This document shows positions 5,292 to 49,397 of a stretch of 64,000 nucleotides of DNA, in pieces. A program made the translations under genes and the position numbers. Position 1 is the stretch's first letter. Every line of letters begins with the position of its first letter. A model generated the notes under the pieces. The model was not told the origin of the DNA. It ran no database searches and saw only the letters and a program-made list of their open reading frames with translations. Source of the stretch: a virus; the IMG/VR virus record IMGVR_UViG_3300009788_000087; one strand, given 5' to 3'.

Positions 5292-5663
5292 TCACTCCAC
5301 TAGAGTCGGCACTCGGCGGCGAACTTCGTCTTCGATGTCTTGTCGACGATCGACTTTCTCAATGATTTCAAGAGTCTTTTCCTGTGTCTCAACAACTCGG
5401 TCAAGGTGTTTGGCTACACTTGCTAGGTGCTCAGCCATTTTCTCTTGGTGGTTTTTCATGTCACTAATATCCCTCTCAATCATGATATTGTTTGTATGAA
5501 CCTTTTCATAGGTTTCTCTAATCTGTCTTGAAACTTCAGGATGCAAGTGTATCGGCGACTTTCCGTTTTTCTTCGTATCCCATCTCTTAATAAAGAAATC
5601 GATTACTTTCGATAAAGCAATGATTACGGTAACGAGAGCAGCGACTGTTCCTGGGGAATCCAT
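5292..5663 (-). CDS. Small protein with N-terminal transmembrane helix and coiled coil (holin-like, uncertain)
   Basis: Hydrophobic VAALVTVIIALSKVIDFF followed by basic residues and heptad-rich tail. Confidence 0.45.
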   Translation of the reverse strand: MDSPGTVAALVTVIIALSKVIDFFIKRWDTKKNGKSPIHLHPEVSRQIRETYEKVHTNNIMIERDISDMKNHQEKMAEHLASVAKHLDRVVETQEKTLEIIEKVDRRQDIEDEVRRRVPTLVE

Positions 5664-6325
5664 TAGTTTATTTCTCCGCTACCTGATTTTTTACGTGCAG
5701 CTTTCGCTTTATCAAGCTCACCTTTTGGAATATTTTTAAGCTCCGGATTAATTCCCGGATCATAGTCTTGTGTTGACGCGAGTGCTATAGCAATTTGTCG
5801 CATCGACGACGTCAATTTCTTCTGCGGAAACATTCTCTCATCATCACCATACCACTCATTTCCATCCCAATAATAGATGTGATCTGGGTTTTTTATTTTT
5901 CTCTTTTCTGGTTCACCTTGCGGATCAAACATCGCAAATCTATCATCCCACCAAAGCTTTGCTGCAATATCGCCATCAGTAAACCACTCTTCTTCACCAT
6001 TTTCAAAATAACTTTCACCTTTACTACTGATATCTTTAAAATGTTCTTCGCGCATGTCTGCAAACTTTTTATACGTTTCTCGAGCACTCTCTACATCATC
6101 TTCTGTTGCTGGCTTGCCGTCTGCTCGCTTAATACCTGCAGCTATATCTTCAGAATCTCTCTCTATAGCTGATCTATAAGCATCAGCCATACTCTTAAAA
6201 AATTCCTTCCACACATCTACAAACTTTCGCCTCGCGTCAGGTGGTAGTTCTTTAAACTTCACATATCTCGTTTCCTGACCACTATACATGGATTCGAACA
6301 GGAATATTCGTGCAAGAGAAATCAC
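5663..6325 (-). CDS. Hypothetical protein with leader MISLARIFLFES (putative capsid-internal protein)
   Basis: 220 aa ORF coupled to neighbours; leader shared with other ORFs; Trp-rich C-terminal part. Confidence 0.6.
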   Translation of the reverse strand: MISLARIFLFESMYSGQETRYVKFKELPPDARRKFVDVWKEFFKSMADAYRSAIERDSEDIAAGIKRADGKPATEDDVESARETYKKFADMREEHFKDISSKGESYFENGEEEWFTDGDIAAKLWWDDRFAMFDPQGEPEKRKIKNPDHIYYWDGNEWYGDDERMFPQKKLTSSMRQIAIALASTQDYDPGINPELKNIPKGELDKAKAARKKSGSGEIN

Positions 6326-6330
6326 TATAT

Positions 6331-7527
6331 TTACTCTCCGTACAGACGGTGACCGTAGCTAGCCTTTGATGTCTTCTGTTCTTTTACTTTCTTACCACCA
6401 AGCTGCTGAAACTTGCTCAACTCCTTGATTCTACCATCCGGCCCCTTCATCCCACCAATAAGAGTATACACGTTTAAACGAGGTTTCTCATCTTCGTACA
6501 CACCACGGTGCATCATTGCGTCACCTGTCAACATAGCAAGAGTATCGAAACCTTCTTCGATTGCTGTGTTGTCTAATTCCTCGAGGATTGACGAACCGCC
6601 AAGAACAACGGCTGCAGCGTGTGATGCAGATGTTAGATCAAATCCACCTGCTAACAGAGTCTTGCTAAGATTGCTCTTCAGTGCAGCAGACACAGAACCG
6701 CTGTCGTCGAGATTCTTCACAGACGTGACACCCATGATCATGCAGCCGCCGCTGCGCATGACTGACATGTAATCTGCTGTGTCGAATGTTGTATATTCAG
6801 TCGGCTTCTTCGTGATGATATTGAACACGTGGAAGAGACCCGCCACTGTTGCATTGACAGTTGGCCAGAAACTCTTAACTGAGAGCTTCGGATACATCTT
6901 CTTTATCTTATCATTGTCGATGAATATAAGTGGACTAACGAGCTTCTTGTCTGCGTAGCCGACTAGTGTCTTTGAAAGCAGTTCGGCATTTTCAGCAACT
7001 GCCTTTGACGCTGACTCACCCGCAGTTGGAAGCGTCATGATTACACCGACACGCTGGTCTGCGTTTGGTTGTCCAATGTGAGTGAGATATAACTTAGCAG
7101 TCTCCACGAGAACAAGTGTTGAGCCGCCACCTGATCCACCACCAGCACCGACACAGATCATGATGTGATCGACTGGTCCAAACTTCTTCTTCATGAGGTC
7201 GAGTATCTGTTGCTGTGAACCAGCTGCTGCAGACTCTCCCTTCGCCATGTCTTTTCCAGCACCCTGCTCTCCTGCATTGAGAAGCACCTTCTGATCTTCT
7301 GGCACATCAACTTTGCTGAGATCTTGTATCGCAGTATTCACGCACAGTGTCTTCTTGTAGCCAAGTTTATAGAATGCCTGAGCTAGCCGACAGCCTCCCT
7401 GACCTGAACCGAGGAATGCATATGTCACAGCACCGCCGGACTCGTCTTCTAGGGACTCATCCTCATATTCTTCTAACTCTGCTTCTAATGGCAGATCAGG
7501 AATTTCGATGTCAAATTCTTCACTCAT
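6331..7527 (-). CDS. Tubulin/FtsZ-family GTPase
   Basis: GSGQGG (T1), VNTA, GAGKD (T3), GAGGGSGGG (T4 signature), IDND, FDTAD (T7-loop-like). Confidence 0.9.
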   Translation of the reverse strand: MSEEFDIEIPDLPLEAELEEYEDESLEDESGGAVTYAFLGSGQGGCRLAQAFYKLGYKKTLCVNTAIQDLSKVDVPEDQKVLLNAGEQGAGKDMAKGESAAAGSQQQILDLMKKKFGPVDHIMICVGAGGGSGGGSTLVLVETAKLYLTHIGQPNADQRVGVIMTLPTAGESASKAVAENAELLSKTLVGYADKKLVSPLIFIDNDKIKKMYPKLSVKSFWPTVNATVAGLFHVFNIITKKPTEYTTFDTADYMSVMRSGGCMIMGVTSVKNLDDSGSVSAALKSNLSKTLLAGGFDLTSASHAAAVVLGGSSILEELDNTAIEEGFDTLAMLTGDAMMHRGVYEDEKPRLNVYTLIGGMKGPDGRIKELSKFQQLGGKKVKEQKTSKASYGHRLYGE

Positions 7528-8171
7528 GTTCCACTTCCTCCAGTCGATGGGCCAAACTGAACATCTCCTCTCGTCCCGAACGGGTCAAACTCACCTATAC
7601 CGTGAGTCTTCTCTTTCTTATTATCTTTTGATTCCCATCTCTTTGTATGGAGCAATCGCACTTTATTTGGATCGATATGCCTGATTATTTTAGCAGAACC
7701 ATCAACAAGTACTTCGACCATGTCGGACGCGTCTCTTTTCTTTGACATACTTGATGGATCACCCTTCCAATATTCTTCTGCATATGCACGGGCTTCTTTT
7801 GATTTAAAGTCTGCTTCTGTCCAATATTCCATGTTTGTATAAAATACTTTACCAGTCACTTCAACCTGATAGACATCATTGAAATTATCTTCAGACCATA
7901 TGTCACTTGCCCATGATATTGCTGCGTATATACTTGGAAATACCAGTTTACTTCCTAATCGTGATGGTCGATCTGGCCATTTTTCTTTTCTCACTTGATC
8001 AAATAATTGTTCTTGTTCTTCCATGCCTCTAACACCATTGAATGTTGGAACTTGCATGCCTGGCTCAAATTTAGTAGAACCCTCCGCGGGGTTTGATACC
8101 CAAAAAAAACTCTTATTAGCTGAAACGTTTTCAAGTTTCTCTATAATATAAATTTCTTTAAGAGTGATCAT
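7524..8171 (-). CDS. DUF2441-like ADP-ribosyltransferase-fold protein with leader MITLKEIYIIEK
   Basis: FDQVRKEKWPDRPSRL...VYQVEV...AEEYWKG...EVLVDG pattern; start set at ATG 8171 overlapping the upstream TAA (TAATG). Confidence 0.6.
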   Translation of the reverse strand: MITLKEIYIIEKLENVSANKSFFWVSNPAEGSTKFEPGMQVPTFNGVRGMEEQEQLFDQVRKEKWPDRPSRLGSKLVFPSIYAAISWASDIWSEDNFNDVYQVEVTGKVFYTNMEYWTEADFKSKEARAYAEEYWKGDPSSMSKKRDASDMVEVLVDGSAKIIRHIDPNKVRLLHTKRWESKDNKKEKTHGIGEFDPFGTRGDVQFGPSTGGSGT

Positions 8172-8629
8172 TAACCCGATTCCCATGTTCCAGGAGGATA
8201 ATCATAATATACTTTTTTTTCTCCTGGACTATAGTTGGCTAATTCCCCTTGTCCGCCATCTGCTTTTGGATCCCAAATCCAAACAGGATCATCCTTAATT
8301 GGGCCAGCTTCAGCCCAAAGAGTCTCGTCTTTTTCAACAAAAACCCAATCTGACGGATCTGGATTAACTTCTTCATGCTCTATGGATGTCCAATACTTAG
8401 CAAAATCTGGAAATTTAGAAGTTACATCACCCCATGATAGTTTCTTTGCAGGAGAATTGTATACGTCATCTATTCCTTTCGGTGATGTCCTAGTAGACAC
8501 AGGTTGTGACCTCTTTGTCCAAGGATCTGCTTTGCCTGTCGGCTTCCTCTTTCCAGCTGGATCATCAAACTTACCCCAAGGGAAGTCAGCTTCCCAAAGA
8601 CGTCTGTATATTTTCTTTAGTCTTATCAT
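8171..8629 (-). CDS. Hypothetical Trp-rich protein with leader MIRLKKIYRRLWEA
   Basis: N-terminus near-identical to that of 31383..31850 (FPWGKFxDPxGK). Confidence 0.65.
   Translation of the reverse strand: MIRLKKIYRRLWEADFPWGKFDDPAGKRKPTGKADPWTKRSQPVSTRTSPKGIDDVYNSPAKKLSWGDVTSKFPDFAKYWTSIEHEEVNPDPSDWVFVEKDETLWAEAGPIKDDPVWIWDPKADGGQGELANYSPGEKKVYYDYPPGTWESG
8567..8586. repeat. 20-nt exact repeat AAACTTACCCCAAGGGAAGT, copy 1
   Basis: Identical to 31788-31807; lies in the FPWGKF-coding leader extension. Confidence 0.85.
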
Positions 8630-9187
8630 TTAGACTCCCACATTCGAGACTCGCATGCTCGAACCACCAAACTTCAGTGGTCGCTTGCTGTGGTTAATCC
8701 CAGTTCCAAGTGGGTCCAAGTCGTCATCGTCGATCAGATGTGCTTGCGTTTGACTTACTTCAACTTCTCCCAAAGCACCATTGTTAGAATCTGGAACATC
8801 ATCACGATCATGTCGAGGATCTACTGAGGAATAGAAACCTTCACTGAAGCGATAGATGCTCTCGAGTTTCGGCATCCTCGATTCTTCTTGGTGGTCATAG
8901 TACTGTGGATCATCGACAAGGTGATCCATCGCTATTTCCATTGCTGCTGCAACATCACTAGTGTGTTCAAGTTCGTGGTGCATACCTTGCATTAGCTGCA
9001 CTTGATCGAACTGCCCGGGATCATACTGTGATCCTTCTCCGCCTGGTAGACGTTCCATCGCGATGGGATTAGCATGTTCCTTCTTATCAGGCAGCTTGTC
9101 GTAATTAGTTCCTTTTCCTAACTTCTTTGCAAGCTTTGGATCATTAGCATAGGCCCACTTCTGTTGTTGTCTTGAACGAAATGGCAT
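8630..9187 (-). CDS. Three-module protein: basic MPFRSRQQQKWAYAN motif + DUF5661-like domain + leader-bearing C-terminal module
   Basis: LPGG..QFD.VQL..GMHHELEHT.D..AMEIAMDHL.DDPQYY; internal MPKLESIYRFSEG at ATG 8875. Confidence 0.6.
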   Translation of the reverse strand: MPFRSRQQQKWAYANDPKLAKKLGKGTNYDKLPDKKEHANPIAMERLPGGEGSQYDPGQFDQVQLMQGMHHELEHTSDVAAAMEIAMDHLVDDPQYYDHQEESRMPKLESIYRFSEGFYSSVDPRHDRDDVPDSNNGALGEVEVSQTQAHLIDDDDLDPLGTGINHSKRPLKFGGSSMRVSNVGV

Positions 9188-9191
9188 TATT

Positions 9192-9776
9192 CTACAGTTC
9201 GTTTCGAATCTGCCCCTTGAAGAAGAATTTTATCATCCCGGACTTTCCAAGCAAAATATGGAGAGGATGTGGGATTTCCTCGAATTGGATGACAACCTCA
9301 TGTGCACCACCCATCATCTTAGATTCAGGATTATATGCAATCGACTGAATCTGTCGACCGGTTATTTCTTTCGAAATAGCTCCGCCTTCTTTCTCTTCTT
9401 CATCTCCCTGATCCTCGACATCCTGCGACAGTTCTGTGTCTGATGGATCTGGATCTCCTGCTGGAACTTCCTCATCAGGAATGTCCTGGTCACCCGCTTC
9501 TGGATCAGCTGGCTGTTCCGGTGGCGATTCTTCTCCCGGAGGTGGTGCTTTTGGCTCATCACCCTCTGGAGCACCAGTCGCTATCTCAGCTCCCCGCTTT
9601 GGTGCCATGTCTGTGCCAGATTTCTCGGGTGCGACATTGTCATTGTCTTTATCAGCACCTTGGACGCCAGGCTCTTTATCTTCCTTATCGTCTGCTTCGA
9701 AGAACTCTCTTATTAGGAGCTCAAGCTCTTCGCGGACAATCTTCTCAACTCTAGATTTCTTAAACTTGATCGACAT
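9192..9776 (-). CDS. Acidic low-complexity protein (putative prohead core/internal protein)
   Basis: N-terminal KIVREELELLIREFFEA then D/E/P-rich linker; start set at ATG 9776 behind AAGGGAAG. Confidence 0.6.
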   Translation of the reverse strand: MSIKFKKSRVEKIVREELELLIREFFEADDKEDKEPGVQGADKDNDNVAPEKSGTDMAPKRGAEIATGAPEGDEPKAPPPGEESPPEQPADPEAGDQDIPDEEVPAGDPDPSDTELSQDVEDQGDEEEKEGGAISKEITGRQIQSIAYNPESKMMGGAHEVVIQFEEIPHPLHILLGKSGMIKFFFKGQIRNEL

Positions 9777-9812
9777 GGTATCTTCCCTTGTATTGAGATA
9801 CAACTGTTCGAT

Positions 9813-10417: not shown

Positions 10418-10427
10418 TTTCTGTAGT

Positions 10428-10727
10428 TCAGCTATCACGGCTTTCTCTTTCTTCGACAAGTTTCTGTGCAAAATACCTAATGAAGTCTGTCTCAAAGAAC
10501 TCCATGGCTGCTTCGAACACAAGCTCCTCAGACTGATCGACATATGATACATCTACCTGAGGATAGTGTAAACACCATAATGTTAGTGGGTTTCCTTCTG
10601 GATCCTTTGGATCCCTGACATCATCCTTGTGTAGACGATATTCTGCTTTTACCTCAGCACCCTTCACACACATTTTTGCTGAGTCTTGTCTAACCAAATT
10701 CTCGAGGTTTAGTTGAAAGTCAATCAT
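10428..10727 (-). CDS. Hypothetical protein
   Basis: 99 aa ORF coupled between the polymerase and HD genes. Confidence 0.55.
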   Translation of the reverse strand: MIDFQLNLENLVRQDSAKMCVKGAEVKAEYRLHKDDVRDPKDPEGNPLTLWCLHYPQVDVSYVDQSEELVFEAAMEFFETDFIRYFAQKLVEERESRDS

Positions 10728-12207
10728 TTTGATCCCAATAGTTTAGACCCGATTTTACCTTAACTTTCAGTCTCATTCCGAAAAGTCTAGCTGAACCGAG
10801 TTCCATTATGTCTCGCATCTCATCGAGGTACTCCATCTCGTCTGGATGCATATCGATAACTAGCTCATCATGCACAGTGAATAGCATCACTGATTTCTTG
10901 TCCTGAAGAAAATCATGTAGACTTACGATTGAATCCATGAACACATCACTTGTGCAAGTCTGTGCATAAAGAGCGAGCACTTTGCCTGGATGTTCTGATC
11001 CATTCAGATCAATTTTCATGTCATCTGGTGTAATTACATACCCTTGATTCATTGATTCAGAATACATCTTCTCTCTGAAGAACACGATTGGTGCGAATAG
11101 TTCATTGAGTTTCTCAACGAGAACTCCTACTTTCTCACTCGACAAACCAGTTGTCTTTGGCAGATTCTTCAATGATCCACCGTAAAGTCGTGTATACGTG
11201 ATTGTCTTTAGAACACGTCGTCTGATACCAGATGTGTCATGGAACTCGTTATCTCCAAAGATATACTCTACAGTTCTATCGTGAAAATCGTCGCATCCTT
11301 CATAGTATGCGTTAAGGTTCTCATCGTCAACTGATGCTACAATGCACCTATAATCCGCAGCGTTGAAATCGAAGGTTGCAATCTTGCCGCCATCAAATCT
11401 ACTGACGATACTCTGACGTACATGGTTTCTTGGTATATTCATGCATTTGAAAGAACCTTTCGCTGTATGGACTCTTCCGGTCTTGGTTCTTTGTGGTATG
11501 AACTTGTTATAGACATATGATCCAGACATCTTGTCTCTGATGTGTTGGATGAATGCCAAATCGTGTGTTGTCATGCCTGCATCAAGATCAATATTATCAG
11601 GGTCTACGTGCACACTATTTTCTTCCATGAGATATAGGACACGTGCTCTATCATAACCAAAAGATCGAAACTGTTCACTATCAAACTTCTTCACCAGTGT
11701 ATTGACCATCCAGTTTCTTAATCTATAGAATGATATTACCACCTTACTTGGGATTATATCAATGAGAGAGTGTTCGTCAAGATTAATCTTCGCTGTTTTA
11801 CATGCCTTGATATGTGAATTGTACTCATGTCTTCCTGCAAGATACTCAACGACATCAGCATCTTTGATATGCTTATTGACTGCTTTGTACAGGTTTTCCT
11901 CACCTGCCATCACTGACACATCTATCACATCACAGTATCTCTTGAAATTACAACCAAGCTTAAGCACATCACGCATGTCAAAACAGATCTTCTCATGCTT
12001 GTGAGAGAAGATCTCATGAATGAAACCATCGAATTCGTCCCAGTCGTTATTCAGGACAAAATAATGATCTGCACCAAAGGATAGAGAAATGCCTTTGACT
12101 CCGGTCGAGTCCTTCACTGCTTCGAAAGTGAACCCTTCATTCTGGGCTCTCTTCTTCAGAGTCTCCAAATGCGCCATCTCCTTTATTATAACACATCTCT
12201 GTGCCAA
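10720..12207 (-). CDS. Family A DNA polymerase-like protein (short, divergent)
   Basis: TKTGR; motif A DFNAADYR; motif B RRVLKTITYTRLYG; motif C VHDELV; no clear exonuclease motifs; start uncertain (TTG). Confidence 0.85.
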   Translation of the reverse strand: MAQRCVIIKEMAHLETLKKRAQNEGFTFEAVKDSTGVKGISLSFGADHYFVLNNDWDEFDGFIHEIFSHKHEKICFDMRDVLKLGCNFKRYCDVIDVSVMAGEENLYKAVNKHIKDADVVEYLAGRHEYNSHIKACKTAKINLDEHSLIDIIPSKVVISFYRLRNWMVNTLVKKFDSEQFRSFGYDRARVLYLMEENSVHVDPDNIDLDAGMTTHDLAFIQHIRDKMSGSYVYNKFIPQRTKTGRVHTAKGSFKCMNIPRNHVRQSIVSRFDGGKIATFDFNAADYRCIVASVDDENLNAYYEGCDDFHDRTVEYIFGDNEFHDTSGIRRRVLKTITYTRLYGGSLKNLPKTTGLSSEKVGVLVEKLNELFAPIVFFREKMYSESMNQGYVITPDDMKIDLNGSEHPGKVLALYAQTCTSDVFMDSIVSLHDFLQDKKSVMLFTVHDELVIDMHPDEMEYLDEMRDIMELGSARLFGMRLKVKVKSGLNYWDQND

Positions 12208-33030: not shown

Positions 33031-33405
33031 TTATCTCGGTGTCTTTCCTACAACGCCAAGCAATTGCTTAAACTTCTGCTGCACTACGTCATCGACCCCT
33101 GCATGATCCAAGATAACAATTGCGAGCTGAATGAGCTCATGTTCGTTCATGTCCCTGACAATTGGACTCTTAAACATCAGCTTAATTGCTTTATCGATGC
33201 GTGTGCCATGATTGTCGGCATCTTTGCCAAAATCTTTGTTAGCATCCTTATTGACATCTTTATCAGCTTCTTCTTCTTCTTCTTCTACGATTCGAAACAC
33301 TTCATTCAATTTCATACCACAAACCTCCGCCGTTGTTTTAAATATGGGTTCGTAAGATCTTGTGTCTTCGGGCAAAAAAATGGTGCCGTCCGAAGACGGC
33401 ACCAT
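33031..33405 (-). CDS. Hypothetical acidic protein (possible alternative start 33315, MKLNEVFRIVEE)
   Basis: Directly follows the capsid gene. Confidence 0.55.
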   Translation of the reverse strand: MVPSSDGTIFLPEDTRSYEPIFKTTAEVCGMKLNEVFRIVEEEEEEADKDVNKDANKDFGKDADNHGTRIDKAIKLMFKSPIVRDMNEHELIQLAIVILDHAGVDDVVQQKFKQLLGVVGKTPR

Positions 33406-39277: not shown

Positions 39278-40054
39278 TCAACTACAAACAGGTATAAAAG
39301 CATCTAATGCAGCTCCCAGTAGTTCTCCTAGTTCAGCGCAACCATCGGCGGTGTAATGCTTATTGTCTATATCTAGGTTGATCACGTCCGGATTCACGAC
39401 TGTGACACGCGAGTCAGCCGCTGCTACAGCATCCTGCGCCGTGCGAATAGTCCCCGCAAAAGCCGCGACGTTGTCTGCATTAAGTCGCGCGATAATAAAT
39501 GGCATCGTGGCGTTATTGAAGTCAATACGAGCCTGTGCAATGAAACTATTCAAGTTTGTCTCGTATGCGTCGGCTTCGACCTCCACTATGGAATCCGCCT
39601 CACCCTGAATCCAAATCATGCCGACGACTTCGTAGCCTCCAGCCCATGCATTGAGCTGTGCTGCTCTATTCTCCAGGAATGCTTTCATGCGACTGTAAAG
39701 TACGGTACCAGTAGATGCCGTCTCGTCCCAGTCATTGGCTAAATCAGTAGCGCCGGTAGCGCATTTAACTAAGTAGACTTCTCCGTGTGTCTGAATGTTT
39801 GGTATATTACGAACAATGCCAACTTCAGGCCCAAACTCTCCCTGTGAGTTGACGCGCGATTTTGTATCGTGCCATCCCCACTCAAATGCGCAAGGCGATG
39901 CACCGTCATCACTAGAACATTGCAATTGTTGCACGATTCTCACGCCCGGGAATTCGTCTCCGTAATTAGCGAAACCTCCAGTCAGGTTTGCAGGGTCGGT
40001 GGCCAAGCCGAGTGCGTTGCTCTGGCCAGCGAGAATGATAACCTGATTAGCCAT
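39278..40054 (-). CDS. SGNH hydrolase of the sialate O-acetylesterase (SASA) type
   Basis: ILAGQSNA, FGPE, WIQGEAD, DNKHY. Confidence 0.85.
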   Translation of the reverse strand: MANQVIILAGQSNALGLATDPANLTGGFANYGDEFPGVRIVQQLQCSSDDGASPCAFEWGWHDTKSRVNSQGEFGPEVGIVRNIPNIQTHGEVYLVKCATGATDLANDWDETASTGTVLYSRMKAFLENRAAQLNAWAGGYEVVGMIWIQGEADSIVEVEADAYETNLNSFIAQARIDFNNATMPFIIARLNADNVAAFAGTIRTAQDAVAAADSRVTVVNPDVINLDIDNKHYTADGCAELGELLGAALDAFIPVCS

Positions 40055-40941
40055 TATGCTGTCACCATCTGTGTGTGAAAGGTTGCGAGAGATGCTTGTG
40101 TAACCGCTTCCGCTGCGGCACCCTCGAACAGTAGGACATAAGCAATGTCCGCACCTGCTGCGGGGAAGCGTGAATCCCCGATCGTGAAGTAGCTGTTATT
40201 GGTAACGAAGGTCAGTGTACTCACGTCACGTGTATGCTCCGATATTTCATTCATTGTCTTGACCGTCTGCGCGGTCGCATTATAGACCATGCCACCGATG
40301 TGCCAGTTTCCGTCATTACTATCACCGACGATCAGGCTATTGGCTACGCTGGCCGTGCCATCACTGATCGTAGTGGTTAGGCGTCCGAGCGAGTCAAACG
40401 AAGAGACAATACCAGCATTGTCAGCCGCGGGCGCGGCAGCCAGCCCCCGCCCCTTTGAGAGCAGTGCCAACGTCGCCGCGTTTTCGACAGCTACGTTATA
40501 CACGGCCATCCATGCGGTGCTCTGTGTAAGGTCCCCGATGAGGACGTTGCTCGCGGCAAATCGTTCACTGGATAAGATTGTAAGTCTGATCGCTGTTCGG
40601 CTGCCTTGTAATCCTGATGTTGCAATTGCCCATTCCGCACCATCTACATCACCCTCGAAAAGCTGCTCATCCTGAAGCGCATCGACAAGGTTGTTATCGG
40701 TTGTTTCTTGACATGTCCAGATGTAACTGGGTGTTGCGGCAGGTACGCCGAGGGCTGTAGCCACTGCTGCTGCAGTAATGGGAAAATTTGTGTCAGTGAC
40801 AGCAGAAGATACTTCAGCCCCCGTTGGAATGCACGAAGTCCCTATTGAATCCGAATGTGACAGATCTCCACTAAGAATACGTGGGTCTTCGTGCAAACCA
40901 CCAGTAATCAATCGACCGAATGCATCATAGAATGGAGTCAT
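40054..40941 (-). CDS. LamG/concanavalin-like protein with conserved N-terminal anchor
   Basis: DGNWHIGGMVY; YFTIG; N-terminal GLHEDPRILSGDLSHS. Confidence 0.6.
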   Translation of the reverse strand: MTPFYDAFGRLITGGLHEDPRILSGDLSHSDSIGTSCIPTGAEVSSAVTDTNFPITAAAVATALGVPAATPSYIWTCQETTDNNLVDALQDEQLFEGDVDGAEWAIATSGLQGSRTAIRLTILSSERFAASNVLIGDLTQSTAWMAVYNVAVENAATLALLSKGRGLAAAPAADNAGIVSSFDSLGRLTTTISDGTASVANSLIVGDSNDGNWHIGGMVYNATAQTVKTMNEISEHTRDVSTLTFVTNNSYFTIGDSRFPAAGADIAYVLLFEGAAAEAVTQASLATFHTQMVTA

Positions 40942-40944
40942 AAT

Positions 40945-41496
40945 CTATGCAAATAGCTGGTACAATGAAAGTAGACCAAATCCACCAGCTACAAGATATG
41001 CAACTATCGCACGGTTCTTCCACTTGGTTATTTCTGACTTCTTTGTGACTATGAGGTCTGATGGTTTCGCGTTCTTCTCTATTTCTTTCATCTTTTCCTC
41101 TGGAATATCAAGAAGATCTTGTTCTGTCTCTAGCTGACCAAGACCTTCGACAAAATGCGGACCATCTGAGATGGGTGCGGAGAAGAATATGACTTCTGAT
41201 AGAAGTTCCGCTCTAAGCATGTCCATCTCATCTTGACTAAGCTTATTCTCGAACCCAATCTGACCAACCGCCAGCACGTCAAAGATCCAGTCATCCGGCT
41301 CCACGTCCGCTTGGGGTCCTACTAGTGCTGCGACACGGGCGCGAACGATTGTTTTTACAGGAGCGGGGTTCTCCAGCACAGTGCGGATCTGCGACAGAAA
41401 TGCCTCGAACTCGGGCACCGTGACGCGCGCGCTGTGCTCGCTGACGTCGTTACTCGTCGGCCAGCCCAGATGAACAGTGTTATCAGGTACGGCCAT
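40945..41496 (-). CDS. Hypothetical protein with C-terminal transmembrane helix
   Basis: AIVAYLVAGGFGLLSLYQLFA terminus. Confidence 0.5.
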   Translation of the reverse strand: MAVPDNTVHLGWPTSNDVSEHSARVTVPEFEAFLSQIRTVLENPAPVKTIVRARVAALVGPQADVEPDDWIFDVLAVGQIGFENKLSQDEMDMLRAELLSEVIFFSAPISDGPHFVEGLGQLETEQDLLDIPEEKMKEIEKNAKPSDLIVTKKSEITKWKNRAIVAYLVAGGFGLLSLYQLFA

Positions 41497-42341
41497 TATA
41501 CAAACGCCACATCAGTGGAGAACGTCGGGAGAGCTGGAGCACCTCCGCCGCCAGCGGTCGGGGTAAGAGTCCATCCGTTACCGCTCGCGTCCAACCAAAC
41601 GTTGTTCAACTGGTGATAGGCTTCCAGGCCGGGCTGCGCGGTGATGTGAGCTAGTTTGTTGGCGTCGATCTGCGGCTGAGTTCGGATTGTGCTGCACACA
41701 CGTGACTCGTCTTGCCTGCCATCAATGGATGCTACGGCTCCGCTGAGCGTCGAACTGCCACCGATAGAAAATCTATCACCGCTGACGGTCGATGACCCGG
41801 CTCGCGCTATGATGATTGTCCCGTTTCCCTGCGACACTCCATCGATGAAAAGTTCGTGCTGTACCGCCTGTGATGCGGCAGCGGCAAGCCACGTCCACGC
41901 CACGTGCGTCCAGACGTTATTTGCGCCGCCAACCCAAGTCCATCTCTGCTGCTGAAACCCGCCCGTGTCTGTTCGCACAAAAGCGTGGAAAACTCTATCA
42001 GGACCTGACGAGGTGATTAACAGAGCGTCGTTTTGAGTGGCGGCGACAAAGCCCCATCTCGACATCAGTGTTTGGGTGGCGGCCCCGGTAAAGGTGTCTA
42101 GCTCAAATAGCGTCTCGTACGTCCGGTCGCCAGTCGTGTTGATTCCCTCGCCTCCAACCAGCCCAAGGATCTCTGCAAGGTTGTTGGTGTTAGTGCCGGC
42201 ATGAGTGAACTGAGCGCTGTGAGTGTTGACCAGCTCTCCATTCACTGATTCAGAATGTGCCAAGTCCCCACCGAGGACACGTGGATCCTCTCTAAGCCCC
42301 CTCGTCACGAGCTCTGGTCCATATAGAGGTGTTAGGATCAT
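41496..42341 (-). CDS. LamG domain protein with conserved N-terminal anchor
   Basis: WTHVAWTW..LFIDGV..FSIGG..IDGRQDESRV; N-terminal GLREDPRVLGGDLAHS. Confidence 0.75.
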   Translation of the reverse strand: MILTPLYGPELVTRGLREDPRVLGGDLAHSESVNGELVNTHSAQFTHAGTNTNNLAEILGLVGGEGINTTGDRTYETLFELDTFTGAATQTLMSRWGFVAATQNDALLITSSGPDRVFHAFVRTDTGGFQQQRWTWVGGANNVWTHVAWTWLAAAASQAVQHELFIDGVSQGNGTIIIARAGSSTVSGDRFSIGGSSTLSGAVASIDGRQDESRVCSTIRTQPQIDANKLAHITAQPGLEAYHQLNNVWLDASGNGWTLTPTAGGGGAPALPTFSTDVAFV

Positions 42342-42647
42342 TTAATCAGAAGTAAGCTCCGTGACCATCGCAGATCCCGTTGTCGCAGTCCAAATACCTG
42401 TTATAGATCCAGTGTACATTGGCAATGGAACCTCATAGTATGAACCTGAACCCATCTTTACAGTGAAGTCATTGCTTGATGCATTTGTTCCAAGTTTTAA
42501 AAACAGTATTGCCTCACTGAAATTGTAAATCATTGCAGCACGACGATGTAGATTCTCAGGAATTACAGTAGTAAGTGCGCCTGTTGCTGGCACTCTTGTT
42601 CCACTAGCTGCTGCAACTCCTAAAAAATTTCCGATGTGTAATGCCAT
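42342..42647 (-). CDS. Small beta-rich virion protein (decoration-like)
   Basis: RRAAMIYN.S..ILFLKLG..SYYEVP..YTGSITGIW. Confidence 0.55.
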   Translation of the reverse strand: MALHIGNFLGVAAASGTRVPATGALTTVIPENLHRRAAMIYNFSEAILFLKLGTNASSNDFTVKMGSGSYYEVPLPMYTGSITGIWTATTGSAMVTELTSD

Positions 42648-42651: not shown

Positions 42652-43245
42652 CTACTTCCTCACTCGTATATCATTAAGAGCTCTATAGATCCTGTCAGCC
42701 TTGCTCCATATTCTCTTAACGTCAACTTCAACTGATTCATTCATGAACGCGCCAGGAGTTGATGGTTCACTAACTGCGTCAAAACAAATGAGCTGGTAGT
42801 CATCCTGTACAACGTCAGTACCTTCATTCGTTGACTCTGTGCTTCCCACTCCCCTGCTCGACATTCCAATTCTGACGCCTGATTCAAGAAGTGACTCAAG
42901 GATCTTTCCTTTCGGTGTATTTAGAACTTCTACCATCCCACGAACTACATCACCTTCCCAGAAGATTTCTCTGACAATGTGAGATGTCTTATCGAGTGCA
43001 ACTGTTGATGTTTCAGGATGATCAAGTTCGCCTAGAGCTCTGTTCTCACGAACGACTTTCTCATAGTTCAATACTTCACGTTGAAGGATCTCATTTGGAT
43101 AGATTCGACCATTCTGATTCTTCGTACCAGACTTCTGAAGAATTGCTGGCAGAAGAATTTTTCCACCATTCTTATTCCTTGACTCATTGATGGCATCGGC
43201 AGTACATTCAAGTGCATACCACTCTCTTAAAAGTGTCTTTTTCAT
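42652..43245 (-). CDS. gp21: Prohead protease
   Basis: KNQNGRIYP; GELDHP; GMSSRGVGS; DAVSEPST. Confidence 0.95.
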   Translation of the reverse strand: MKKTLLREWYALECTADAINESRNKNGGKILLPAILQKSGTKNQNGRIYPNEILQREVLNYEKVVRENRALGELDHPETSTVALDKTSHIVREIFWEGDVVRGMVEVLNTPKGKILESLLESGVRIGMSSRGVGSTESTNEGTDVVQDDYQLICFDAVSEPSTPGAFMNESVEVDVKRIWSKADRIYRALNDIRVRK

Positions 43246-44408
43246 TATGATATTTTCCTGTACTTAGATGTTAGAGTACGTTTAAGCATCGTGATTTCGA
43301 GTGCATTGAGATCTGCCACGAACCCGTCTACTTTCTTCTCCATCTTCATGAGGTACTCATCACGCTTCTGAACTGCCTTAGCAACGTCATCTGACGTATC
43401 GAGTGCATCCTCTTGAATAGCCATCATCTCTGCTCTGAGCACTTTGGATCTTTCTGGATCAATCTTTCCCATCGTGCCACGTGCATTCTCAGAGACATCA
43501 ATCTTTGGGTACCCATTCACGATAATCAAGTAGAATGGACCTACCTCACCAGTTCCTTCACTGTCTCCAATGTAGAACTCCATGTAGAGCTCACCCTTCT
43601 CAACATCTTTCTTTACGCCCTTCTCCTTAACTTCGAAGCCCGCAGATTCAAGCGAATTCTTTATTGTCCCCGCTGCGTCTTTCAGTGCTTTCTCGGACTT
43701 CTTTGCAATATTCTTCTGCATGCCCTGAAAGGTTTTATCAGCGAGGACTGCTTGCTTTGAGAGTTTGCTTACGTACTCGTCCCAACTACTTCCGCTCTTT
43801 TCCTCACGGAAGATCGACTCAGTTATGCTCGCTACGAGCCTATTAAGAGATTCTTTCTTTCCATGTTTCTTCGAAGCTGGAGCTTTGGTCTTGGGATCTT
43901 TTTCTTTTTCAGCAGCTTTCTCAGGATGCTTGCGTAATTGCTCAACATCTTTCTTCATCGCTGCAAGCTTTGATGGATCCCTTGGTGGAAATCTACTGAG
44001 CTCAGAGCGACGTGCGGCTAGCTTCGTTGGAAATTCACCGACCTCTTTCGAGCCTTGCTTCTTTCCTGGATTCGGTGCATAGAGGACGTACCCCTCACCA
44101 CCCTGTTTCTTTCGAACGATCTCACGGACCTTACTCCTAATGACCTGACGCAGTGCATTCTCTGCGAATCCTTTCTTGATCATCTCAGCTAGCTTGACGT
44201 ACTCGTTCTCATCAAGCATGCCTTCCACGATGCCAGATGATTCCTCATCAAGACCACAGAAATAAGCAATTGCTTCAACAACACTAAGGGTCTCATTCAT
44301 GTCGAGCATCTCGTCGACTTTCTTCTTCCTTTTCTTGATGCCAACTGGTACCTGGAACCCCGCGATTCCACCGACACCAGAAAATTCTTTTAGTGTCTTC
44401 TTAGCCAT
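43245..44408 (-). CDS. Hypothetical prohead core-like protein
   Basis: Charged, several LxE sites, between portal and protease. Confidence 0.5.
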   Translation of the reverse strand: MAKKTLKEFSGVGGIAGFQVPVGIKKRKKKVDEMLDMNETLSVVEAIAYFCGLDEESSGIVEGMLDENEYVKLAEMIKKGFAENALRQVIRSKVREIVRKKQGGEGYVLYAPNPGKKQGSKEVGEFPTKLAARRSELSRFPPRDPSKLAAMKKDVEQLRKHPEKAAEKEKDPKTKAPASKKHGKKESLNRLVASITESIFREEKSGSSWDEYVSKLSKQAVLADKTFQGMQKNIAKKSEKALKDAAGTIKNSLESAGFEVKEKGVKKDVEKGELYMEFYIGDSEGTGEVGPFYLIIVNGYPKIDVSENARGTMGKIDPERSKVLRAEMMAIQEDALDTSDDVAKAVQKRDEYLMKMEKKVDGFVADLNALEITMLKRTLTSKYRKIS

Positions 44409-45267
44409 TAGAGTTTAATTCCTCCACGAGCTTGCAATAAAGCAGCATGTCTTCAACGTGTGAACTATGAGATTCTCTCAGGTTCAATTCACGAAGCATG
44501 TTTTCAGCGTCTTTTAATTTCTTTATCATCTGCTTATCTTCATGAATTTCTTTTACACCATGAGCAGACTGCATCTCAAATAGAAGTCTCTTTCTTTCAA
44601 CAACGAGCATTGCAGTAACGAGTCTAGAACTATTCTCTGATGCTAGAGCAACGACATACTTCTTGAGCAATCTCTTCTGTGACTCACACAATGTATCATT
44701 GTATCGCTCATTGAATTTCTTGACAGTAATTGAATAAACCAGAGGATCGATCTTTTCAGTTATAGCATGTCTCTTTGTATCGACTGACATGTAGTTTATG
44801 AGTGCTTCTTCGAGATGTACTCGCTGGACGCTCTCGTTGATAGTACTCTTCGGATTACACCCGTTAATCAACATCTGGATCGATGCGTATGCTTTGTAGT
44901 CAGCAAACTTGTAATCAGAGAAGAGATTCTTTCCGAATGCACGATGAATCTCCTTGATTGCATTGCTCTTCTTTATGTCTATCAGTCTATGATCAAGCTT
45001 CTTCGCTACAATGATAACTTCTGCCAACACTCGACGTGCGACATTCGGTTTTACACCTCGAGTTGAAGCTATAATTTCAAAGAGCTGTCTCTCCTTTGCC
45101 ATCGGTTGGCCAGCAGCAAAGTACTTCTTTGTAATTGCCAGGGCACACTTATAGCTTCGAGAGTCCTTGTCGATCAACGACTCAGACATCTTTCTAACGA
45201 GAAATTCATAGACTAACCCAGAATTCCTGCGCTTATTATGCTTAAACCTCATCTTCTTAGAGCTCAT
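44401..45267 (-). CDS. Hypothetical head-module protein
   Basis: FKHNKRRNSGLVYEFLVR; directly after portal. Confidence 0.6.
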   Translation of the reverse strand: MSSKKMRFKHNKRRNSGLVYEFLVRKMSESLIDKDSRSYKCALAITKKYFAAGQPMAKERQLFEIIASTRGVKPNVARRVLAEVIIVAKKLDHRLIDIKKSNAIKEIHRAFGKNLFSDYKFADYKAYASIQMLINGCNPKSTINESVQRVHLEEALINYMSVDTKRHAITEKIDPLVYSITVKKFNERYNDTLCESQKRLLKKYVVALASENSSRLVTAMLVVERKRLLFEMQSAHGVKEIHEDKQMIKKLKDAENMLRELNLRESHSSHVEDMLLYCKLVEELNSNG

Positions 45268-45305
45268 ATTGTTGATGTCTCCATTCTCCTATGGATTTAA
45301 TCTAA

Positions 45306-48300
45306 CTAGGAAGAATTCTTAGTGCTGTATCCTCTATAGAGATTTTCTTTAAGAATGCTATTCGTTTTTCTAAGGTCATTTTCAAATTTCTCTACTCTAG
45401 CCAACGAAGATTGCACATACTGACCGATTGGGTCGGGTTCATTTGATTCTGTCACATTCTCAGAAAATGGGTTTGATATCATTCTTTTTATTGATCTCAT
45501 ATCGAAAGGATCAGATGCTGTCTGTTTCTCAGTACCGAATACATGGTTAAACAAGTCTTCACTCGGGTCAAATAAGTCCTTACCCTTGTTAACTGATACC
45601 TCTGAGCTACAGCCGCGGCTTCCAGGGTTATGTCTTTCGTCACCTTCGCCAGACTCATCGATTTCACTTTTATCTTCTTCGCACTCATCTTCATCTTTTA
45701 ATAGAATAGGTGCCATCGATAATGTTAGTTCATCGTCATTCTGGTCATCGTAGTCGACGCCAGCTTCAAGTTCTTCTTCGCCGCCGAGTGATGTTGGCAG
45801 TTCTTCTTCTCCTGGTATTGCTTCACCGCCTGGCTCTGGTTCTGCTCCTGGTGCTGCACCTATGCTAGGTTCTTCTTCATCAGTCTCTGGTTCAGCAGTT
45901 ATGCCATCAAGCTCCATCTGGAATAACTTATCAGCGCGCATCTCATCCTGCATCTCTTCAATTTCTTGTTTCGACATGCCAAGGATGTCACGCCATGTCT
46001 GTGTCTTGCTGACCATGCCCTCCTGGACAGAACCTGCAATCTCAAGCTTTAGTCTCCATAGTTCAAGTTTCTGCTGCTCAGCAATCGTAGATGGATTAGC
46101 CATCTTAATATCATAATCGATTAGCTCGTTATCACGGAATCCAAGAAGATAAAGATGGATAATCGCGATTTTCATGAGCTCTGAGAGCACAATCTTCTGA
46201 ATTCGCTGAATTGTCCTTGAGAATCTAACATCTTCTTGCGCAAGTGTCGCTTTAGATCCCACATCACCCTCATATCCGAGGTACGCCTTTGGAATCTGAA
46301 GTGCTGCAAAGAGCTTATTCTGAATATACTCTACATCTTCGATATCGCCAGTGAATTGACCACCCGGCAATGTTGTAATGTCTGAACCCTTCCCGTCTCT
46401 TTGGGGCAGGAAGTAATCTTCATCGACAGAGAGAGGGTTGTAGCGAAGATCGACACGTCCTGTGGCTGCATCAATAATCTTGCTTCTCTTCAGTCTATTC
46501 TGGATCTGCTCCATCTCTGCTGGCACATCTTCTGGTTTGACGTTACCAACTTCAATCTTAAAGACTCTCCTCTCAGGAGACCTCACGATCCTGTAGACTA
46601 GCATTGCATCCTCGATGAGGATAAGCTGACGCCAAATGCGTCGTGCTGGTTCAATGATGCTAGCACCATATGGCAAGAAGTTATCATTACCCAGAAGTCT
46701 AAAATGAATGATCTGCCATGCTTCCAGGATCATGTTGCCCTGTGTCAGCCACCTGAATCGGAATGCGAACGGATTCTTTGGATCATAGCCTTCTTCCCTC
46801 TCTACCTCATTGATAGGAATCGGGAGCATGTTCAGAATTCCATTCTGCTCACTTGCATCCACGAACAATATGAAATCACCGTATTTGCACAGGTTTCTTA
46901 CCCACGAATGCAGGTTAAACTCGATATTAAGAATATCAAAGAACAGCGTCTCAAGAATATTCTTGATTTGTTGGTTATCAGACTCAATCTCGATCATGTG
47001 GCCTTTCTCATCCACATTCGTTACTTCATCTGCGTAGATATTCAGAGCAGAAGCAATCTCTGGAGTGTTATGTGATATTACTGAATCTGTTGCAAAGTTC
47101 TTGTATTTGTCAACTGTTAAATCATATACGTCTTCATGTCCATAATATTCAACAGACACAACCTTACAATTGTTGTAGTTTCTACAGAAGTCTGCAGTAC
47201 TCTTATAACCGTGTTGTTTAACTCTACCTTTAATTTTCATGGGCGTGACATCTAACTTTCTCACAAGATCCATGCCTTTCATGTTTGGTGTCCATGCATC
47301 ACAGATCATTTGAAACGTTAGAGAATCATCCCATCTTGGGTTTTTACTTCCTGCATTATCCCAACCGTGGTTTTTCCACTCGGAATTATATGTTTTCGCA
47401 AAGATCTCCCAATTAGCGAAACTATATCTTTTTAATTTTCTCTTTATAACATTGGGATCGGTATCAAAAACTTTGCATGTCTCATAGAGATTAAATCCGT
47501 TATTCTCAGCGGCTTGTAAAATCTTTGCAAATGTTATATCTCGACGCTCAGCAGGATTATTCTCCTTCATGAATTTCGAATGTTCACGTTTGAACTTCTC
47601 AATCCACTCACTATTCTTTTCGTAGTTCCACTTATGTTCTTTGTTATAAATAATCCTATGAAGACGTGAATGATCATCACGATTCATTATCTCAAGATTT
47701 TCTGGTCTATTATCAAACTTTAAGAAATTCTTATGATGGACTACTTCATTTTCTTCCATGATTCTATCAGAAGACCATTCAGCAATCATTTTATGTTCTG
47801 TCTGCCACCCGTTTTTCGTATCGGGTGTCATTGAATAGATATACTGATAGTGTTCTGTGTCAAATCTACCTTTAGGCGAACGAAATGAACGACGATAGAA
47901 TGGCATCATAGAATCACCAGCAACTAATCCACAGATCTTCCTATAAGATCCGTCTCTTAACATGAGTCTATGGTCAGATGTTCCTATGATTTCTTTTCCA
48001 TTATCGAATGTTACTTTCCACGCGTGTTCTGTTCTTGTTTTTCTAGCTTGCTTAGCTATAGCAGGAACAATCTGTCCAACTTCATGGTCATAAGAAAAAA
48101 CAACAAACTCTTTCTCAAGACCATATTCTTCAGCTAGTTCTTTAATTGTCTTATATCCACCAGGTACAGCTATAAGTGTACTTCCTAGAATGCAATATTC
48201 CATTTCTGAGTAATCTGCATACCTCGCCAGCCGCTCGTACTGTCCATATGATGCAAGAGAGTTAACGTAGAGCGACGAGAGCTCTTTTCTATACGCGCGT

Positions 48301-48425
48301 GCAGTGCCCTGAGGCTCGTACATTTTCGAGCTACTCGCGACCTTGTGGCGTACGACGGGACCGTTGCGGAACAGCCTAGTTAACTGAGCCCAGATACTCT
48401 CTTGTTGTCTAATCAGTGGTGGCAT
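45306..48425 (-). CDS. gp20: Portal protein, interrupted by an intein
   Basis: PEIASALNIYADE; KYGDF; YGASIIE.ARRIWRQL; RSPERRVF; EDYFLP; acidic tail. Confidence 0.95.
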   Translation of the reverse strand: MPPLIRQQESIWAQLTRLFRNGPVVRHKVASSSKMYEPQGTARAYRKELSSLYVNSLASYGQYERLARYADYSEMEYCILGSTLIAVPGGYKTIKELAEEYGLEKEFVVFSYDHEVGQIVPAIAKQARKTRTEHAWKVTFDNGKEIIGTSDHRLMLRDGSYRKICGLVAGDSMMPFYRRSFRSPKGRFDTEHYQYIYSMTPDTKNGWQTEHKMIAEWSSDRIMEENEVVHHKNFLKFDNRPENLEIMNRDDHSRLHRIIYNKEHKWNYEKNSEWIEKFKREHSKFMKENNPAERRDITFAKILQAAENNGFNLYETCKVFDTDPNVIKRKLKRYSFANWEIFAKTYNSEWKNHGWDNAGSKNPRWDDSLTFQMICDAWTPNMKGMDLVRKLDVTPMKIKGRVKQHGYKSTADFCRNYNNCKVVSVEYYGHEDVYDLTVDKYKNFATDSVISHNTPEIASALNIYADEVTNVDEKGHMIEIESDNQQIKNILETLFFDILNIEFNLHSWVRNLCKYGDFILFVDASEQNGILNMLPIPINEVEREEGYDPKNPFAFRFRWLTQGNMILEAWQIIHFRLLGNDNFLPYGASIIEPARRIWRQLILIEDAMLVYRIVRSPERRVFKIEVGNVKPEDVPAEMEQIQNRLKRSKIIDAATGRVDLRYNPLSVDEDYFLPQRDGKGSDITTLPGGQFTGDIEDVEYIQNKLFAALQIPKAYLGYEGDVGSKATLAQEDVRFSRTIQRIQKIVLSELMKIAIIHLYLLGFRDNELIDYDIKMANPSTIAEQQKLELWRLKLEIAGSVQEGMVSKTQTWRDILGMSKQEIEEMQDEMRADKLFQMELDGITAEPETDEEEPSIGAAPGAEPEPGGEAIPGEEELPTSLGGEEELEAGVDYDDQNDDELTLSMAPILLKDEDECEEDKSEIDESGEGDERHNPGSRGCSSEVSVNKGKDLFDPSEDLFNHVFGTEKQTASDPFDMRSIKRMISNPFSENVTESNEPDPIGQYVQSSLARVEKFENDLRKTNSILKENLYRGYSTKNSS
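47067..48194 (-). mobile_element. Intein (376 aa) with HNH endonuclease
   Basis: EMEY/CILGST start; HRLMLRDG; VYDLTVDKYKNF..ISHN/T end; VVHHKN..DNRPENL. Confidence 0.92.
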
Positions 48426-48433
48426 GTTCTATT

Positions 48434-48868
48434 TTAAATCTTCGAAATCTTGTCAATTATATTTTGATAAGATTTCTTATACTCTGGCGAAATTAATTCA
48501 TTGCTTTTAGCAATTTCAACCATTTTTTTTATCAATTTCCAATCTACATTTGAAGCTAACTTTGCATTTGTCGTATCATGTGTTACTTGTCCAGAACTAT
48601 TCGTAGATCTGCCATTCACAACAAAGCTAACAAGTTTTTTTCTATCTGAATCTGATATTTCTCCATCTAACCACGGAGCATCGGCACTACTGGCTAATGA
48701 AATTATTTGTTTCAATTCTTCTTTTGAAAAATGACTAGCTATGTCAGCTCCTGAATGTCTACACCCGGGATTTTTGCAATCTACATCATGCATTCCCACA
48801 TATGCACCTGGTTCCCCACATTCTGGACAGTCAGCTTCAAAGAGATATATGTTATGTATTTGCTTCAT
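48434..48868 (-). CDS. Zinc-ribbon protein with leader MKQIHNIYLFEA
   Basis: CPEC..CKNPGC after the leader. Confidence 0.6.
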   Translation of the reverse strand: MKQIHNIYLFEADCPECGEPGAYVGMHDVDCKNPGCRHSGADIASHFSKEELKQIISLASSADAPWLDGEISDSDRKKLVSFVVNGRSTNSSGQVTHDTTNAKLASNVDWKLIKKMVEIAKSNELISPEYKKSYQNIIDKISKI

Positions 48869-48869
48869 A

Positions 48870-49397
48870 CTACGATTTTACCATGTAACCCTTGATATAA
48901 TTAGCAGGAATATTAGAAGGATACATTACCTCTGCAAGTTCCCAATATCTAGGGTTTCCTTTGCCTTTCTTTTTCCATGTCTCATGGTCATAGATCCTGG
49001 TATCTCTCTTTGATGTAACGAATTTATCCCACATGTTCGACGGAAGCTGCACTACAATAACAGCTCTCTCACTCATCGGTGCGCTCTTGACAGCTTTAGA
49101 GCGCCTGAAATCCCTCTCGCCACCTGCTCCTGCCATTGCAGCATAGCCGCGTGCAGTAAACGGATCTAACGCTAAATAAACTCCGACACCTTTTGCTCCA
49201 TGGCCAGCCTGAAGTCCTCCCTTTGATATCTTATCGAGATTGCTAATGTGAGTACCATGAAATAAGATACCAGTGTCCTGCCACCAAGCGTTCTCATCGA
49301 ACGACCATGGCATCTCCCTCATGTTTAGTTCATCAAACTTCTCAATGATGAAGATCTCGTCAAGTCGTGGCCAACTCATTTGCTTGAAATCAACCAA
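48870..49397 (-). CDS. ADP-ribosyltransferase, H-Y-E type
   Basis: LFHGT, GVYLA.D..ARGYA, ELAEV..IPANYI; leader-like RLDEIFIIEK. Confidence 0.75.
   Translation of the reverse strand: MVDFKQMSWPRLDEIFIIEKFDELNMREMPWSFDENAWWQDTGILFHGTHISNLDKISKGGLQAGHGAKGVGVYLALDPFTARGYAAMAGAGGERDFRRSKAVKSAPMSERAVIVVQLPSNMWDKFVTSKRDTRIYDHETWKKKGKGNPRYWELAEVMYPSNIPANYIKGYMVKS

Follow-up and report, generated by a model that had tools for sequence, protein, structure and literature searches.

The locus and its leader-bearing genes

The IMG/VR virus record IMGVR_UViG_3300009788_000087 was analysed as a single stretch of 64,000 nucleotides (hereafter, the window), in which the minus strand carries nearly all long open reading frames (ORFs). 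The subject of this analysis is a short N-terminal leader of the form M-x-x-L-x-(E)-[IVL]-[YF]-x(0-4)-E, which begins ten minus-strand genes and recurs once in a shorter form and once inside a protein. Judged by its genes, the phage is an uncultured, distant member of the T4 superfamily, encoding a gp17-like terminase, a gp20 portal, a gp23 major capsid protein (MCP), and an S77/gp21 protease. Its terminase (49376-51061) is at most ~40% identical to that of any deposited phage, the nearest being Flavobacterium phage immuto and Microcystis phage Mel-JY01, and no near-identical DNA was found among the deposited phages searched. The head module follows the T4 gene order of portal, two core-position genes, prohead protease, further head genes, scaffold candidate, and MCP (Table 1). 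Searches of PHROGs and Pfam returned no significant match for the scaffold and core candidates.

An earlier note on this DNA had described such a leader on about a dozen unrelated ORFs. All 12 of the N-termini listed there are indeed present on the minus strand: ten are strong (starts at 6325 and 33028, both GTG, and at 8171, 8629, 29705, 31850, 32206, 33315, 48868, and 49379), one is short, and one is internal. For the gene next to the terminase, the leader stands but its listed start, TTG at 49397, probably does not; the gene more likely begins with the ATG at 49379, whose overlap with the terminase stop codon reads ATGA. The internal copy, MPKLESIYRFSEG (8875), sits at residue 105 of the 185-amino-acid (aa) DUF5661 protein 8630-9187. 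The chosen starts give tight gene packing, with 1- to 8-nt overlaps or gaps of a few nucleotides, and most have a GGAG-like ribosome-binding site; six of them are also independent gene calls in public databases. One further gene, 41496-42341 (MILTPLYGPE), was considered as a cargo gene and rejected, as its candidate leader ends in G-P-E without Leu or Ile at P3 and its paralogue 40054-40941 starts differently.

The leader is strongly concentrated at gene starts. Its core, [LIM]xx[ILV][YF]x(0-4)E, falls within the first eight residues of 11/63 genes, compared with nine matches at ~19,700 internal positions (odds ratio 49, Fisher p = 3e-13); one of these 11 genes, the rejected 41496-42341, is probably a chance match. 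A start-codon-anchored six-frame scan yielded 13 distinct matches on the gene strand and three on the opposite strand, with a shuffle mean of 0.24. When N-terminal 14-mers were compared all-versus-all with BLOSUM62, using no regular expression, 15 pairs exceeded the 99.9% shuffle threshold versus 3.2 expected, and the two largest clusters (six and three genes) consisted exclusively of leader genes; the short-leader gene 32211-32588 also clustered with the leader set. The gene set was then widened beyond the window along parent contigs from JGI 3300028610 and ENA ERZ27251120 that are 100% identical to it in the overlap, giving 100 genes from ~109 kb of phage for the comparison of virion and non-structural genes; a parent-contig look-up with 61931-63763 as the query gave no match. 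Non-structural genes, the control proposed in the earlier note, proved free of the leader, which occurs in 11/64 virion-module genes versus 0/36 non-structural genes (p = 0.007). None of the 37 genes outside the window, which include those for RecA, DnaB, RNR, ThyA, DnaE, and tail-fibre-like proteins, carries it.

Conserved leader residues are coded by varied synonyms (CTT, CTA, CTC, and TTG for Leu; ATA, ATT, and ATC for Ile; TAT and TAC for Tyr; GAA and GAG for Glu). Because synonymous codons vary in this way, the constraint acts on the peptide and not on an RNA or DNA element, nor does it reflect recent duplication. The proposed unrelatedness of the downstream bodies holds with one exception: in an all-against-all BLASTP comparison, the bodies of 8171-8629 and 31383-31850 are paralogous (27% identity, E 3e-10), and all other tagged bodies are unalignable beyond the leader. 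For most cargo bodies, PHROGs and Pfam returned nothing significant.

Table 1. Leader-bearing genes, further candidates, and head-module features of the window. A slash in a leader string marks the predicted cut; cargo status is likewise predicted.
Feature	Coordinates	Strand	Leader	Remark
Polyvalent protein (2507 aa), N-terminal part	1-5288	-	MSLSYLDKIIRE/Q (leader-like)	candidate further cargo
Leader cargo	5663-6325	-	MISLARIFLFE/S	GTG start; family not found (PHROGs, Pfam, Atlas)
Leader cargo, DUF2441/BC2332-like fold	7524-8171	-	MITLKEIYIIE/K	precomputed PF10386 match
Leader cargo, FPWGKF family	8171-8629	-	MIRLKKIYRRLWE/A	paralogue of 31383-31850
DUF5661 protein	8630-9187	-	MPKLESIYRFSE/G, internal, at residue 105 (nt 8875)	Pfam DUF5661, E 2e-7
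Further candidate outside strict motif	9192-9776		...LLIREFFE/A at residue 27	
Leader cargo	29313-29705	-	MIRLTEVYKLCE/N	motif and start-anchored scans
Leader cargo, FPWGKF family	31383-31850	-	MIKLTEIYKRIFE/A	paralogue of 8171-8629
Leader cargo	31847-32206	-	MIKLIKLYE/A	motif and start-anchored scans
Short-leader protein	32211-32588	-	MRTRLTE/A	weak form; 7 [LI]xE sites vs 1.8 expected
Leader cargo	32585-33028	-	MKLTSLYLLE/A	GTG start
Leader-tagged small acidic protein	33031-33315	-	MKLNEVFRIVE/E	first gene of the array behind the MCP gene
MCP, gp23-like	33434-35152	-		phrog_138, E 2e-71
Scaffold candidate (gp22 position), presumed leader docking site	35188-36543	-		directly upstream of the MCP gene; kept in relatives
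Further candidate outside strict motif	36832-37419		MKLTIEELKSVIRKVARNLVE/K	
Prohead protease, T4 gp21 family	42652-43245	-		phrog_207, E 4e-48
Second core-position gene	43245-44408			between portal and protease genes
Core protein candidate (gp67/68 position)	44401-45267	-		syntenic in relatives
Portal	45306-48425	-		Portal_T4; 1039 aa, intein-interrupted
Leader cargo, Cys-rich zinc-ribbon-like body	48434-48868	-	MKQIHNIYLFE/A	weak zf-tcix match, E 0.011
Leader cargo, ADP-ribosyltransferase-like fold	48870-49379	-	MSWPRLDEIFIIE/K	translationally coupled to the terminase gene

Correspondence to the T4 capsid-targeting sequence

In phage T4, a capsid-targeting sequence (CTS) on IPI, IPII, IPIII, and Alt is removed by gp21 (Mullaney and Black 1996, reviewed in PMC9026906, PMC3012670). 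The internal proteins of T-even phages form a diverse set with the CTS as their only common part, and CTS fusions deliver foreign proteins (PMC3012670, PMC9026906). IPII and IPIII of the T4 record NC_000866 start with MKTYQEFIAE/A and IPI with MKTFKEF...ITE/A; the leaders of the window align position by position with the CTS of IPII and IPIII. Mutagenesis of the T4 CTS assigned targeting to residues 4 and 7, and processing to residues 8 and 10, the latter being the Glu (PMC9026906). The positions conserved here are L4, often E6, [IVL]7, [YF]8, and the terminal Glu. Taking a CTS to be a propeptide of 6-19 residues that is hydrophobic at positions 4 and 7 and ends in (L/I)-x-E, ten leaders fit fully and one is a short form. 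The short leader of 32211-32588 is comparable to the propeptide of T4 Alt, which has six residues (ITE-6) (PMC5694885).

The leader ends also agree with the protease that is encoded. P3 of the terminal Glu is Leu or Ile in 11/11 leaders, and for nine of these the core motif does not include that residue. Known gp21 sites include ITE-6 and LTE-619 in Alt (PMC5694885) and LIE-9 in gp21 itself (PMC9026906); because these have the same form, the [LI]-x-E ends of the leaders correspond to the gp21 cleavage rule. The product of 42652-43245 scores 96.9 bits against Pfam PF03420 Peptidase_S77 (cut-off 27), aligns to the T4 gp21 structure 5JBL (E 4e-17), and contains the His-bearing ELDHP and Ser-bearing SSRG motifs. 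Its own N-terminus is leader-like (MKKTLLREWYALE/C), which agrees with the suggestion that gp21 bears its own targeting propeptide. In addition, [LI]xE sites are enriched in the scaffold candidate 35188-36543 (14 versus 6.1 expected) and in the gp67/68-position protein 44401-45267 (12 versus 3.8 expected), as expected of gp21 substrates, and four such sites lie among the first 67 residues of the MCP 33434-35152.

The likeness to T4 thus covers a short N-terminal propeptide that is hydrophobic at positions 4, 7, and 8, often has Glu at position 6, and ends in (L/I)-x-E followed by a small residue; it also covers the placement of this tag on unrelated, fast-evolving bodies in a phage that encodes a gp21-family protease and, as with Alt, the presence of one cargo with an ADP-ribosyltransferase (ART) fold. 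The differences are nonetheless considerable. The consensus here is L4/[IVL]7/[YF]8, with a length of 7-13 residues, whereas T4 has [YF]4/F7/[IT]8; ~11 genes are tagged here versus four in T4; and the tagged genes stand in head-module arrays (behind the MCP gene, between the terminase and portal genes, and before the polyvalent protein gene), unlike the dispersed loci of T4. Moreover, the bodies here are mostly acidic whereas those of T4 are basic, and the ART lies on the KptA/DarT/PARP side of the superfamily and not, like Alt, on the Alt/VIP2 side.

Two other systems invite comparison. In the giant phages phiKZ, 201phi2-1, and SPN3US, many head-internal proteins, ejection proteins included, are cut after Glu by a gp21-related protease, as is predicted here, and a role in prohead targeting has been suggested for their propeptides (PMC5694885). 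Unlike in the window, however, the giant-phage proteases favour a small P3 residue (A/S/G-x-E), and most of the propeptides are longer than 100 residues and have no short leader in common (PMC5694885). The second system comprises polyvalent and other head-packaged phage effectors; the genes of these enzymes, and of ARTs above all, neighbour terminase, portal, and capsid genes, and the products are predicted to be packaged and injected (PMC5512222, PMC9503650). For these effectors, packaging was inferred from MuF/portal fusion or from neighbourhood, whereas the common element here is a discrete, removable N-terminal tag.

Variable slots and the ADP-ribosyltransferase-like family

The closest relative, an IMG/VR contig of 113 kb with 64% MCP identity, has syntenic flanking structural genes and no homologues of the tagged genes. 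Behind its MCP gene stand two other leader ORFs (MTPKLSKVFLIKE/A and MISIRHVFVIRE/D) versus five in the window. Relatives at 55-69% MCP identity likewise carry other leaders in the same slots (MKKLKDIYE/N, MKLMKILQEIIQE/M, MNLLDIYE/L, and MSMKKVFILE/A). The tagged genes occupy head-module hot spots, namely the terminase/portal interval, the region behind the MCP gene, the position before the neck genes, and the block upstream of the polyvalent protein gene. One relative, L089, retains the terminase-ART-portal arrangement and is missing 48434-48868; in it, a homologue of the FPWGKF family adjoins the protease gene and has the leader MRKKSIKSLYESIFRE/A. A search of viral contigs with this family found no relatives, and a word-based protein search returned only the family itself. 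DUF5661 and a leader ORF are separate genes in the contig L095, whereas L093 and the window have them as one in-frame fusion; on this comparison the internal leader at 8875 is a module junction. Among distant MCP relatives (~45% identity, L002-L080), the rate of the leader consensus is not above that of the opposite-strand control. The gp68-position core protein of the deposited phage immuto (L176 5635-6717) starts with MRTLQEKYNAIQE/G, which has the same leader form as the window and offers a possible experimental handle in a culturable relative.

The ART-like cargo 48870-49379 was modelled by AlphaFold with a pLDDT of 83.6, the leader forming a short helix that is followed by a low-confidence linker. 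Its top Foldseek matches all have the ART fold (KptA/Tpt1, DarT, and PARP) and are modest (E ~1e-3, TM 0.36-0.46), and its Pfam PARP score of 17.1 bits lies below the cut-off of 26.7. Neither Pfam nor PHROGs gave a match to Alt/VIP2, and we do not place it in the Alt/VIP2 (R-S-E) clade. The leaders of its homologues drift by lineage (MIKLNEIFLFE/D, MIKISDIFLIE/G, MRLLEIYTVGE/A, and MKSFKEYISE/A), the last belonging to a contig that also encodes gp2, gp53, gp5, and baseplate proteins of T4 type. An exhaustive profile search for the family yielded 174 representatives. Among the 41 stand-alone representatives with intact N-termini, nine begin at the conserved body and 32 carry a short extension. 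A Phi-x-E ends at residue 7-14 in 27/32 of these extensions, versus 11% of control segments, and P3 is Leu or Ile in 24/27. Many are textbook T4 forms, such as MKTLSEFLIE/A and MKNFKQYIAE/S.

The same body also exists without a leader. It is matched by 45 records of cultured Vibrio phages, all leaderless, and in the Vibrio myophages examined (Kuja and K471) the gene stands among SbcCD and RNR genes, outside the head module. Because the same ART-like body is leaderless outside the head module, the leader is, on this comparison, an add-on that tracks head-module placement and varies in sequence with the phage lineage. The evidence for tag separability is natural variation only, in the form of an ART-like body with this leader, with T4-style leaders, and without a leader. 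For ARTs encoded beside terminase or portal genes, comparative work has predicted packaging into the head (PMC9503650). As a separate observation, the large proteins just upstream of the leaderless homologue in Kuja and K471 (L174 3482-5977; L175 308-2524 and 2879-5959) begin MGLFKNLVTE..., MAKFSHIVNE..., and MALFKQLVES...LTE/AFN, and look CTS-type.

Homologues of the DUF2441-like cargo 7524-8171 likewise retain a leader, starting with MISIKEAFCLNE/K, MIKLTEIYRLDE/K, and MKLLLENWRE/Y; no match was found in deposited phages. Its model (pLDDT 74) best matches BC2332 (PDB 2aua, E 7e-7), a protein of unknown function, and a resemblance to ART-fold or NADase-like proteins was discarded as not significant (E 0.09 or worse). 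The start of the polyvalent protein misses the strict motif since it has Ile, the T4 residue, at the second hydrophobic position. A family A DNA polymerase-like protein (10720-12174, minus strand; PF00476, E 3e-24) is encoded within the virion gene block, and its orthologue in the closest relative has the leader-like start MLIKLDKLFE; because of this start, the PolA-like protein may be a packaged polymerase.

Several neighbouring minus-strand genes complete the picture of the window. A tubulin/TubZ-like gene (6331-7527; Tubulin GTPase domain E 1e-10, TubZ-like C-terminal domain) lies in the middle of a leader-tagged block, and its product has an acidic N-terminus and no leader. The trypsin-like peptidase 27949-28818 (Trypsin_2, E 2.5e-12) has an N-terminal hydrophobic anchor, adjoins a gp15-like neck gene, and is a second protease in the structural module. 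Between the prohead protease gene and the next head gene is a cassette of higher GC content (39278-42647, ~0.49 versus 0.42) that is missing from the closest relative; it contains a SASA-type carbohydrate esterase (39278-40054) and the paralogues 40054-40941 and 41496-42341, which have a common N-terminal segment of ~50 residues. The portal 45306-48425 contains an intein that bears an HNH endonuclease (Pfam Intein_splicing at residues 90-453, HNH_3 at residues 224-254), whereas the 668-aa portal of L089 has none. Finally, two overlapping ORFs of the window (58327-60092) correspond to one 587-aa Laminin_G_3 protein on L173, another contig of the same phage; one 1-nt indel is all that separates the two sequences, and it may stem from a frameshift, from variation between strains, or from faulty assembly.

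Readings of the leader and their meaning

The earlier note had read the leader as a capsid-targeting signal, and the analysis supports this through the gp21-family protease, the positional match to the T4 CTS, the [LI]-x-E ends, the variable head-module slots, and the ART family with and without the tag. In our judgement, the leaders are probably capsid-targeting propeptides, removed by a protease, that mark head-packaged proteins. Each would be a lineage-specific version of the T4 CTS. It would probably fold as a short amphipathic helix, hydrophobic at positions 4, 7, 8, and ~11, that would anchor a freshly synthesised protein on the scaffolding core as the prohead forms. The gp21-family protease 42652-43245 would then cut at the [LI]-x-E of the leader, freeing the mature protein within the capsid. 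Once mature, the proteins would remain alongside the packaged DNA, and infection would bring most of them into the host. The cargo set would include the ART-like enzyme, the DUF2441/BC2332-like protein, and several proteins of no known family. As the tag would be modular, genes newly landed in a few head-module hot spots could acquire a leader.

Several points weigh against this account. Core binding, cleavage, packaging, and ejection are all steps that we infer for an uncultured phage known from sequence alone. The mature bodies are acidic to neutral in 10/11 cases (pI 4.4-6.9), unlike the basic internal proteins of T4, and the sole basic tagged body is that of the ART-like 48870-49379 (pI 9.5). 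A fraction of the tagged proteins may serve in the core and be broken down instead of being delivered; 32211-32588, which has seven [LI]xE sites, and 33031-33315, which is acidic, are possible examples. In immuto and Mel-JY01, the nearest cultured phages, there are no comparable arrays. Furthermore, the T4 late promoter motif TATAAATA is not enriched (one found versus 1.9 expected), so that gene order is all that argues for co-expression with the head genes; in the array behind the MCP gene, no promoter or terminator signal stood out.

A stronger form of the capsid-targeting account would have the leader be a clade-specific CTS "dialect" that has co-evolved with the scaffold core of its clade, which we regard as possible but doubtful. 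If it were true, the full head-packaged or injected set of uncultured T4-superfamily phages would be readable from sequence; here, that set would run to at least 11 small proteins, with the 2507-aa polyvalent protein as a probable and the PolA-like protein as a possible addition. Packaging codes would in that case be mutually orthogonal from one clade to another.

Among the rival explanations, the one that survives best holds that the leader is purely a removable propeptide, which might, for instance, hold enzymes in an inactive state before maturation, or a degradation mark, with no role in targeting and no delivery to the host. Every leader does end in the protease motif, and some bodies are rich in [LI]xE or very acidic, resembling the degradable core proteins of T4. 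A bare cleavage site, however, needs none of the residues conserved upstream of the cut at positions 4, 7, and 8, which correspond to T4 targeting residues (PMC9026906), and enzyme-like cargo such as the ART fold would make sense as delivered effectors; we therefore consider this explanation unlikely. Recognition by some other partner, be it a peptide-modifying enzyme, the trypsin-like peptidase 27949-28818, or localisation via the tubulin-like gene, is less likely still. Although the module does contain genes for a Trypsin_2 peptidase and a TubZ-like protein, the radical-SAM signature CxxxCxxC occurs in 0 of 82 proteins examined, the leader fits the T4 CTS and the gp21 rule, and, in contigs that have T4-type virion genes, the leaders of the ART family grade into canonical forms of the T4 CTS. 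That the leader has no function at the protein level, and is a relic of duplication or recombination or an AT-rich 5' codon preference for translation initiation, would accord with the AT-rich codons of its residues (I, K, L, T, E, and Y) and with the one paralogous tagged pair, but is already largely refuted by the differing synonymous codons, the unalignable remaining bodies, the lack of the motif in 89 other genes of the phage, and orthologues in other contigs that retain the pattern while residues drift.

The CTS principle and its use in delivery are already established for T4. Thus, the protein-delivery tool put forward in the earlier note is not a new idea, as T4 CTS fusions have been so used since the 1990s (PMC3012670, PMC9026906). 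The particular value of the present case is a large tagged set in a distant clade, together with a clear with- and without-tag series in one cargo family. If the capsid-targeting reading holds, the tag would be a cheap sequence handle for proteins delivered with phage DNA in uncultured T4-superfamily phages. It would find first-response effectors, including ART-like enzymes and probably anti-defence proteins, that otherwise have no recognisable families. One cargo body with three kinds of leader, or with none, shows gain and loss of the tag, and the leader variants on that body form a set from which the grammar of capsid targeting could be defined.

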